Source of the DNA: Candidatus Poribacteria bacterium
Lineage (GTDB): Bacteria; Poribacteria; WGA-4E; WGA-3G
Length of the DNA stretch: 64,000 nt
Assembly: GCA_964291315.2 (NCBI GenBank)
Contig: OZ219750.1
Span: forward strand, 480,001-544,000
Reading direction: 5' to 3'
Shown: in pieces, positions 47,215 to 48,415 of the stretch
How positions within the stretch are numbered: position 1 is the stretch's first letter
Layout: each line of letters starts with the position of its first letter
Notes under the pieces: generated by a model
Seen by the model: only the letters and a program-made list of their open reading frames with translations
Database searches by the model: none
Told to the model about the DNA's origin: nothing
Position numbers and translations under genes: made by a program

Positions 47215-47412
47215 ATGTTAGGCGCAAAACAACAATGGTGTCCTCGCTGCCAAAGGCATATACAGACGGAGCAGAAGCGATCTAATATTGGTAGACAGAA
47301 GGAACTCGTCAGAATTACTGTTACTTGTGGCAAGTGTCGGATAACCTTGTCTAGCAGAACAACGAGCGCAGCTGTGCTTGAACAAAGTGAAGACGCTCCA
47401 ACGGAACAGTAG
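47215..47412 (+). CDS. Small zinc-ribbon-like hypothetical protein
   Basis: AAGGAG RBS; CPRC...CGKC. Confidence 0.6.
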   Translation: MLGAKQQWCPRCQRHIQTEQKRSNIGRQKELVRITVTCGKCRITLSSRTTSAAVLEQSEDAPTEQ

Positions 47413-47461
47413 TGGTGAAATTTTGAATTAACGTTTTGTTTAATACAAAAGGAGGGAAGTT

Positions 47462-48379
47462 ATGTTTAAGCCCGTTTTTCACTCCACTGCCGCATATCTA
47501 ACAGGATTCATTGTCTTGTTGATGATTGGCACAATCCCCGTGCTCGGCGCGCGTGATGAAATTCAGTGGAAAGAGACAGTAGAAGACACCATGAAGGAAG
47601 CCGAGAAAACCGGTAAGCCTATCATGATGGACTTCTATACCGATTGGTGAGGATGGTGTAAGCGGCTGGATGCCGAAACGTTTACAGACGCAAATATCAT
47701 TACACTCACTGAGAAATTTATTTCTGTCAAAGTAAATCCAGAAGATACAGAGCGTCCGATCAATGAAGCCATGCGAAGTCGATACGGGGTCGCTGGTTAC
47801 CCTGCCATTTTGTTTGTCAGTCCAGACGGCGGACTCATCAAATCTCACACTGGTTATCTTACCCCTGATCAGCTTGCGCCGATTATGGAAAATGCCTTGA
47901 CAGTGGAGGCCGAGTTCCAAGAAAAATTGGAAAAATTGGCAGCTAAACCAGATGATGCTAAGCACAACGCTGAGGTTGCACTCATCTATTTGGAACGGAA
48001 GCAGGTAGAAAAAGCAGTCCCCCTCAGCGAAAAAGCGTTTAAATACGATCCGAATAACGGATCGAAACTGATCCCCAAATTGCACAACCAGCTTGGACTC
48101 GCTTATAGTGCGCTCCTTGAAACTGCTGATGCTGAGAAGTCAGAGGTATATTTTGAAAAGGCAATATCTCACTTCAAAACGCTCGTGGACAAGTATCCGA
48201 AGAGCGATCTCTATGAGCCTGCACAATATTACCTTGGTGTGACCTATGCCATCAAAGAGCATTTTGAAAACTCAATTGCTGTGCTTGAGAAACTCACACA
48301 TCACGCCAAGGATGAAAACATTAGGCAGAGTGCTGAGGCGATGCTGGAACGGGTTAAAAGTTTGGCCGATGCCGATTAA
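47462..48379 (+). CDS. Secreted thioredoxin-fold plus TPR protein, probable selenoprotein (UGA at 47648-47650 = Sec; 305 aa)
   Basis: ORFs 47462..47650 and 47771..48379 are in the same frame with only one TGA between them: KPIMMDFYTDW*GWCKRLDAETF...F.SVKVN...YGVAGYPAILF; TPR-like C-terminus. Confidence 0.85.
47657..47686 (+). promoter_or_regulatory. Putative bacterial SECIS hairpin
   Basis: tgtaag-cggc-tggat-gccg-(aaacg)-tttaca stem-loop starting 6 nt after the TGA, with G-containing apical loop. Confidence 0.55.
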
Positions 48380-48388
48380 CAATCATTA

Positions 48389-48415
48389 ATAGGCGCGGTC
48401 TGAAGCTGCGCCTAT
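48389..48415. terminator. Hairpin between convergent genes
   Basis: ataggcgcgg-tctgaag-ctgcgcctat. Confidence 0.55.

Follow-up and report, generated by a model that had tools for sequence, protein, structure and literature searches.

In a 64,000-nucleotide stretch of a Candidatus Poribacteria bacterium genome (assembly GCA_964291315.2, contig OZ219750.1, positions 480,001 to 544,000 of the forward strand; hereafter the window), the gene at positions 47462-48379 very probably encodes a genuine selenoprotein, a thioredoxin-like oxidoreductase with a tail of tetratricopeptide repeats (TPR) made from a single gene. The recoding part of this reading, selenocysteine (Sec) at codon 63, is predicted a shade more firmly still. 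The gene is a single + strand frame of 305 codons followed by TAA at 48377-48379, and its sole internal stop is a TGA at 47648-47650 (codon 63), within DFYTDW-U-GWC-KRL. The frame continues after the TGA with VKVN and then YGVAGYP, which includes Pro114 (47801-47803). Calling of open reading frames (ORFs) with table 11 cut the frame into 47462-47650 (62 amino acids [aa]) and 47771-48379 (202 aa, starting at an internal ATG). A first-pass annotation, made from the letters alone, had described a 305-codon frame with a lone TGA at the first Cys of a WCxxC motif, and both coordinates and motif were verified. The features of the gene are as follows.

47450..47455, +, Shine-Dalgarno-like AGGAGG, read from the sequence, 6 nt upstream of the ATG at 47462
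47462..48379, +, complete coding sequence (CDS) of the thioredoxin-TPR selenoprotein with UGA63 as predicted Sec; orthologs of the same length have one TGA
47462..47551, +, putative N-terminal export signal, residues 1-30; from the sequence, with an equivalent in all 39 orthologs
47567..47863, +, thioredoxin-fold domain, DsbD-gamma-like, residues 36-134; from Pfam, PDB profile and Foldseek matches
47648..47650, +, UGA codon 63, predicted Sec, nucleophilic first position of U-G-W-C; aligns to Cys in homologs
47657..47659, +, TGT codon, Cys66, resolving residue of U-x-x-C; invariant in 37/37 aligned orthologs
47657..47686, +, hairpin within the CDS resembling a Sec insertion sequence (SECIS); lower stem, 5-nt 3' bulge, upper stem and apical loop
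47801..47803, +, Pro114, putative cis-Pro loop proline (GVAGYP); invariant column, with the cis-Pro role assigned from the thioredoxin fold
47864..48373, +, all-helical TPR-like tail, residues 135-304; from AlphaFold2 secondary structure and Pfam TPR families
47771..48379, +, 202-aa gene-caller ORF with an internal ATG; an annotation artefact and no separate gene

The conservation of the TGA codon was determined in 176 genomes of the phylum, including this one, with a match threshold of E<=1e-25; the TGA counts of this search apply to the matches listed, beyond which there were 65 further matches. Matching genes occurred in 157 of the 176 genomes, all within four families of one order (this genome left out, 110/111 in family f1, 11/11 in f2, 29/29 in f3 and 6/7 in f4), and in 0/17 genomes of the seven other families. 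Among the matches listed, each one spanning residue 63 has exactly one TGA; two also have a TAG, and the sole match without TGA lies at a contig end and begins only at residue 68. In 60 relatives and this genome, every ortholog-level match across the active site has one in-frame TGA. From 40 loci 39 orthologs were extracted (L038 being the truncated locus), of which 37 entered the protein alignment. The TGA occupied the identical codon in all 39 extracted orthologs, whose identity to the window protein reached down to about 37%, and the surrounding motif was [DE]-[WY]-U-[GS]-x-C. U63, C66 and P114 were invariant in the 37 aligned orthologs. Contigs from four DNA runs of one study, one of them possibly the source of this genome, all carry the TGA; they showed 19 variant positions in 47400-48400 and none within 47618-47715.

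At the protein level, the 305-aa read-through product (P0001) matched Thioredoxin_7, Thioredox_DsbH, Thioredoxin_2 and Thioredoxin, all above the Pfam gathering scores (PF13899 with 52.4 bits and PF13098 with 51.8 bits; cut-off 27 each). Because these hits cover residues 30-159, the thioredoxin match spans the TGA. TPR_2 (residues 173-199), TPR_8, TPR_1 and TPR_19 were found in the tail. An AlphaFold2 model built on the 37-ortholog alignment (mean predicted local distance difference test score [pLDDT] 90.5, predicted template modeling score [pTM] 0.83) has a continuous thioredoxin fold across the TGA at residues 36-134, preceded by disordered residues 1-29 with a pLDDT below 50, and followed by a long linker helix (135-161) and seven helices up to residue 304. 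The best matches of the thioredoxin part were 2kuc (4.5e-20) and DsbD-gamma (1e-15) in the PDB profile search, and 1uc7, 2fwg and 1vrs in Foldseek (template modeling score [TM] 0.73-0.79, root-mean-square deviation [rmsd] about 2.5 A), while the TPR tail gave weak matches to YbgF, BamD and PilW. The N-terminus starts basic and continues with about 19 hydrophobic residues, a helix breaker and the sequence ...PVLGA|RDE, and each of the 39 orthologs has a hydrophobic N-terminus equivalent to it. These characteristics fit a predicted cleavable signal peptide of the Sec (secretion) type or a signal anchor; as the signal region has no Cys, the protein is not a lipoprotein. The first-pass annotation had thus correctly described a thioredoxin fold uninterrupted across the TGA and a TPR tail, whereas of its N-terminal signal peptide the conserved hydrophobic sequence was found and export itself is only inferred.

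Homologs with Cys were abundant outside the order. The ortholog profile was searched against 1.84 billion cluster representatives, and 425 proteins were obtained at E<=1e-30. The residue at the Sec site was counted in the best 150 of these 425, which contained 90 matched stretches of at least 200 aa comprising the thioredoxin domain and the tail; CxxC was present at the aligned site in 89 of the 90 stretches and WxxC in one. In P0167 (288 aa, 30% identity over 270 aa, E 1e-47), for instance, a C is aligned to the U, with the sequence DFYTDWCGWCKRLD. The aligned codon was also read in 80 loci of other phyla, taken from GTDB genomes of Planctomycetota, Armatimonadota, Brachyspira, Omnitrophota, Ignavibacteria, Acidobacteriota and others, and was TGC in 46, TGT in 34 and TGA in none. 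TGA in one order and TGC or TGT elsewhere is, as far as sequences can tell, the classical signature of a Sec codon. The source databases label the Cys homologs 'thioredoxin-related protein', 'thioredoxin-like negative regulator of GroEL' or 'BamD'.

Several individual homologs deserve mention. Two metagenome proteins with Poribacteria-like N-termini, P0124 (W-C-D-T-C) and P0129 (W-S-R-W-C), carry Cys or Ser at the Sec site. A Cys paralog beside the Sec gene was not found in 5/5 genomes of the sister genus g13 searched with P0124 (P0129 was not searched); the best match to P0124 was in all five the TGA-containing gene itself, with 40-46% identity. The g13 orthologs (e.g. L062-L066) have longer open frames of 346-433 aa, in which the match splits in two. 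This pattern fits putative extra TPR-like repeats inserted behind the thioredoxin domain and ahead of the conserved tail (cf. P0045, 390 aa). P0250, a metagenome protein from outside the clade, has W at the Sec site and may be another Sec form rendered as Trp. P0122, P0123, P0134, P0147 and P0193 have Thioredoxin_7 domains in tandem, 3 to 9 per protein, all of them carrying W-C-x-x-C, and some of these proteins end in a TPR tail.

The genome, 4.40 Mb in 4 contigs, contains the complete machinery for Sec incorporation. A genome search detected tRNA-Sec with 78.1 bits (gathering score 47), located 45 nt from selB, and profile searches yielded selA (588.9 bits), selB (328.8 bits) and selD (357.3 bits), all above the curated cut-offs; selD itself carries one in-frame TGA (KCAG-U-ASK). 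As selA was present in 163 of the 176 genomes of the phylum (130/133 among the high-quality genomes), Sec use is a trait of the lineage. TGA terminates 426 of the 1,960 ORFs of at least 300 codons in this genome, and its role as an ordinary stop codon counts against a reassigned genetic code. A full DsbD, consisting of DsbD_N, DsbD_TM and a thioredoxin domain, is also encoded.

Directly downstream of the TGA lies a hairpin. Its lower stem begins at 47657, 6 nt downstream of the TGA as in the first-pass annotation, and pairs UGUAAG (47657-47662) with UUUACA (47681-47686); the upper stem, CGGC (47663-47666) with GCCG (47672-47675), encloses the apical loop UGGAU (47667-47671) at a spacing of 16 nt from the UGA. 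The limits for bacterial SECIS elements given in the Fig. 2 legend of PMC13188914 are a loop of 3-9 nt with G within the first two nucleotides, an upper stem of 4-16 bp, a spacing of 16-37 nt and a minimum free energy (MFE) of -7.5 kcal/mol or lower. The window hairpin lies within them, with a loop of 5 nt, G at loop position 2, a 4-bp stem, 16 nt of spacing and -9.0 kcal/mol; the strict stem rule and the energy rule were each satisfied by 27 of the 39 orthologs. In the alignment of 39, the columns of the hairpin apex (C16, C19-A23 and G25-C27) were invariant, and the codons hardly varied: CGG for R68 in 37/38, CTG for L69 in 39/39, GAT for D70 in 38/39 and GCC for A71 in 39/39. Codon entropy was calculated over the 67 columns in which at least 85% of the orthologs share the amino acid. 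It was 0.18, 0, 0.17 and 0 bits for R68, L69, D70 and A71; most other conserved columns had 0.4-2.2 bits, other Leu, Arg and Ala columns had 1-2.2 bits, and only L275 was equally low. This freeze of synonymous sites at R68-A71 is the strongest evidence of a constraint at the RNA level. Paired cells made up 78% and 85% in the two lower-stem registers, in comparison to 20-58% in slid controls. A relaxed hairpin of the same type, with an NGGNN loop, follows only 353 of the 18,502 in-frame TGAs of the genome; together with the fixed position of the TGA in the orthologs, this rarity exceeds what chance would give.

A screen of the whole genome for selenoproteins by codon-usage score alone gave 495 candidates, most of them false, and was replaced by a hairpin-filtered list. 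The best coding-like TGAs in this list belong to recognisable selenoprotein genes, namely three genes with HMA domains (GMT-U-xxC) and a redoxin with W-U-G-C. The HMA-domain genes have the hairpin AAGUGC-AGGAU-GCACUU and relatives of it 22 nt after the UGA. Two of them, at 877-1272 and 1282-1731 of L070 on contig C4, are small tandem genes with GMT-U-GSC, the first with a lipoprotein-like signal, and the third site (GMT-U-QAC) lies near the end of contig C3 (C3:363107); near-identical AAGUGC-NGGNU-GCACUU hairpins follow all three. The redoxin gene, at 1112-2251 of L069 on contig C1 outside the window, encodes a second putatively exported thioredoxin-fold selenoprotein of 379 aa with an AhpC-TSA/Redoxin domain and a C-terminal TPR repeat of its own; its hairpin, CUGCC-AGGCU-GGCAG, lies 20 nt after the UGA. 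This protein looks like the published 'UGC-containing TlpA' type. The selD gene, found separately from the hairpin screen, has the hairpin GCUCC-AGG-GGAGC. The UGGAU loop of the window gene, closed by C-G, fits this local style of NGGNU loops after other Sec codons. Several of the selenoproteins of this genome seem, by their sequences, to be destined for the envelope.

The selenoprotein reading of the first-pass annotation is therefore supported by the Sec machinery, the conservation of TGA, the alternation of Sec and Cys, and the constraint on the hairpin, from which we infer Sec insertion itself. The checks that it had named gave concordant results: tRNA-Sec, selA, selB and a TGA-containing selD were all found, TGA throughout one order faced TGC or TGT in 80/80 loci of other phyla, and the hairpin was conserved even at synonymous sites and resembled those after the other Sec codons of the genome. 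Several points weigh against this reading. The hairpin is minimal, with stem length and spacing both at the lower limit. Twelve of the 39 orthologs have a C.A mismatch as the fourth pair of the upper stem, for which an alternative lower-stem register, AUGUA/UACAU, compensates, and 12 of 39 fall short of the local MFE limit of -7.5 kcal/mol. Covariation in the two lower-stem registers was no better than in shuffles, and the upper stem shows no variation. Given the sequence of the window itself, RNAfold favours an 8-bp stem that competes with this hairpin and has a larger loop, and an Rfam scan of 47400-47900 at E<=10 gave no SECIS family and only snoRNA and sRNA hits at chance level. Part of the conservation at R68-A71 is due to the protein, since these codons encode the invariant L69, D70 and A71. 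Moreover, L072 238-1068, from a metagenome-assembled genome of Fimbriimonadales (Armatimonadota), is a Cys form 35% identical to the window protein that has TGT at the Sec position and shares 23 consecutive nucleotides including the whole CGGC-UGGAU-GCCG, so that the hairpin alone is no proof of recoding. It was the only such hairpin among the 80 Cys-form loci; it may have been left over from a Sec ancestor, may be a pre-adapted sequence, or may reflect a chance codon choice for K-R-L-D-A. The neighbouring genes (mnmE, orf65, a rluB-like gene and a HAD gene) are syntenic within the genus and silent on function; export, redox direction and the clients of the TPR tail are read from resemblance only.

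Three explanations dispense with Sec. That the TGA is a nonsense mutation or a sequencing error in a Cys-type thioredoxin-TPR gene, which would make the gene a pseudogene or an artefact, would agree with the frequency of Cys forms elsewhere and with the practice of annotators to take TGA as a stop. It is contradicted by the TGA at the same codon in 39/39 orthologs and in every spanning match among the matches listed; with both halves conserved at the protein level and the four DNA runs agreeing on the TGA, it deserves virtually no credence. Two separate products, a 62-aa exported peptide and a 202-aa TPR protein translated from the internal ATG at 47771, are what table-11 gene calling puts out. 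This arrangement is very improbable, since the thioredoxin fold needs both sides of the TGA (residues 30-159 in Pfam, 36-134 in AlphaFold2) and the Cys homologs are single proteins. Furthermore, the 20 nt upstream of 47771 show no AGGAGG-like site, and the internal starts vary among the orthologs, the database fragments being 185-244 aa long. Reading of the UGA without Sec, either by a reassigned code (TGA as Trp or Gly) or by near-cognate suppression giving Trp or Cys, could explain the W found at the site in some database entries (WWGWC). It is hardly more plausible than two products, because TGA ends 426 of the 1,960 long ORFs and the Sec machinery is complete; besides, the codon lies opposite the catalytic Cys in the alignments, a site at which Trp would abolish the redox motif, and the synonymous constraint directly downstream suits a SECIS.

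A fourth explanation accepts the selenoprotein and gives it another role, as a DsbA-like oxidase, a scavenger of peroxide or sulfenic acids, or an envelope protein that binds metal or selenium and is anchored by its TPR tail. The direction of electron flow is unreadable from sequence, the genome encodes other putatively exported Sec proteins with metal-binding HMA domains, and the weak matches of the tail to YbgF, BamD and PilW also point this way. On the other hand, the nearest solved folds are the reductive DsbD-gamma and DsbH, and DsbD is present as a possible electron supplier. The dipeptide of the U-G-aromatic-C motif, which we take to resemble those of isomerases and reductases, was weighed in the same direction. 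Such another role thus appears unlikely, although clearly less so than the three preceding explanations. A reductase or isomerase role recycled by DsbD is the most likely direction, with slightly better than even chances as judged by analogy.

For the Sec-recoded thioredoxin-TPR oxidoreductase the following course can be proposed. Translation would start at 47462, and the hairpin with the apical loop UGGAU would recruit SelB with Sec-tRNA(Sec), so that Sec is inserted at UGA63 in place of termination. The N-terminal signal would carry the protein across the inner membrane. There, Sec63 would be the attacking nucleophile on disulfides or sulfenates of clients, Cys66 would resolve the selenenyl-sulfide, and the DsbD of the genome, a possible electron donor, would re-reduce the Sec63/Cys66 pair, while the TPR tail would serve to bind a client protein or a partner. 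A holdase role of this tail like that of CnoX is suggested by resemblance only. The more specific proposal of an envelope counterpart of CnoX is doubtful; here, exported proteins that are unfolded or damaged by oxidation would be held by the TPR tail, and a selenol instead of a thiol would reduce their aberrant disulfides or sulfenates. In such a protein the selenol would be retained because it resists irreversible over-oxidation, which would account for the absence of any reversion to Cys among the spanning matches listed from the 157 genomes, even though Cys forms prevail in other phyla. As to the origin of the Sec form, K-R-L-D-A in common codons folds SECIS-like by itself (cf. L072) and could have been a pre-adaptation for a switch from Cys to Sec.

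UxxC thioredoxin-fold selenoproteins are the commonest predicted kind in the text of PMC13188914 and PMC2398784, where UxxC selenoproteins of the DsbD-gamma-like 'thiol:disulfide interchange' type are already listed. The claim of the first-pass annotation was consequently less unusual than it had been rated. The window protein shares with that type (PF13098/cd02953) the Sec at the first position of a CxxC-type motif, the DsbD-gamma-like domain, the SECIS hairpin directly 3' of the UGA and the many Cys homologs. The likeness is drawn from the shared Pfam domain and the UxxC motif alone, and the tables of these proteins, as far as contained in the texts, name neither a TPR tail nor Poribacteria. 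The terms 'TPR', 'tetratricopeptide' and 'Poribacteria' are absent from the text of PMC13188914, PMC13326102, PMC12013277 and PMC2398784. No description of a thioredoxin-TPR selenoprotein was found in the literature searched on Poribacteria and on bacterial thioredoxin-like selenoproteins, although supplementary tables (the BSepDB family list) could hold one.

DsbD gamma and DsbH (1uc7, 2fwg, 1vrs and 2ju5), which are periplasmic reductive folds, were the best match in structure and sequence over, approximately, residues 30-145. In contrast to them, the window protein is free-standing and not fused to the membrane domain of DsbD, has U-G-W-C instead of a Cys pair, and carries an additional TPR tail. 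CnoX/YbbN (E. coli 3qou, Salmonella 3qdn) has the same order of an N-terminal thioredoxin and a TPR domain. Foldseek aligned 3qou and 3qdn over 290-293 columns with E ~1e-5 and 12% identity, a global TM of 0.26-0.28 and an rmsd of 21 A; the domains are placed differently, and homology over the whole length is not demonstrable. No CnoX entry was among the best 60 of 214 PDB sequence hits. According to the abstracts of PMC6282202, PMC8129009 and PMC10998233, CnoX couples a redox function with holdase activity. It is cytoplasmic and acts with GroEL, whereas the window protein has a putative export signal and a thioredoxin domain of the DsbD-gamma (Thioredoxin_7) type with predicted Sec.

The NCBIfam families TsoB (NF045694), Trx7/PDZ (NF041199) and VPGUxxT type 2 (NF041383) likewise have a Thioredoxin_7-type domain able to carry Sec, but only the thioredoxin domain of the window protein matches them, and all three models scored below their cut-offs (78.7 versus 805 bits, 28.8 versus 300 bits and 18.4 versus 275 bits, respectively). 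No curated model covers the family of thioredoxin-TPR selenoproteins. The splitting of the gene by standard annotation, which the first-pass annotation had expected, is borne out by the public protein sets: these contain P0002 and more than 100 similar C-terminal fragments of 200-227 aa, called 'hypothetical' or 'TPR repeat'. In full-length entries of the Sec clade the residue at the site is W (WWGWC), as a gene caller with TGA=W would print. Judged from the sequences, the gene is a Sec form, order-wide and so far unannotated, of a widespread and uncharacterised family of putatively exported thioredoxin-TPR proteins.

The mechanism is not new and is ordinary for the field; the value of the gene lies in annotation and in the comparison of Sec and Cys. 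A systematic annotation error is corrected, in that the gene now stands in the databases as a C-terminal fragment or with W at the Sec site, and the thioredoxin-fold selenoproteins gain an order-wide, strictly Sec-retaining and putatively exported member. Beyond this gene, a large and uncharacterised family of putatively exported thioredoxin-TPR proteins comes into view, to which the 425 cluster representatives, including the proteins with multiple thioredoxin domains, would belong. The Sec form and the many Cys forms of one architecture are a natural pair in which the benefit of selenium in the oxidising cell envelope may be studied.

Two minor elements flank the gene. Directly past its TAA, at 48390-48414, lies a 7-bp inverted repeat (TAGGCGC ... 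GCGCCTA) with an 11-nt loop, which overlaps the stop of a convergent pseudouridine-synthase-like gene; no T-run was noticed there, and the repeat may be a shared terminator. Upstream, between mnmE and the selenoprotein gene, a 65-aa ORF at 47215-47412 on the + strand contains two CxxC pairs and is zinc-ribbon-like, with weak Pfam matches to ZPR1 and DUF7351, both below the cut-offs. This ORF is probably a real small gene, because it is conserved with 72-83% identity in 17 of the 19 other loci of the genus that were examined, one locus ending before its position.

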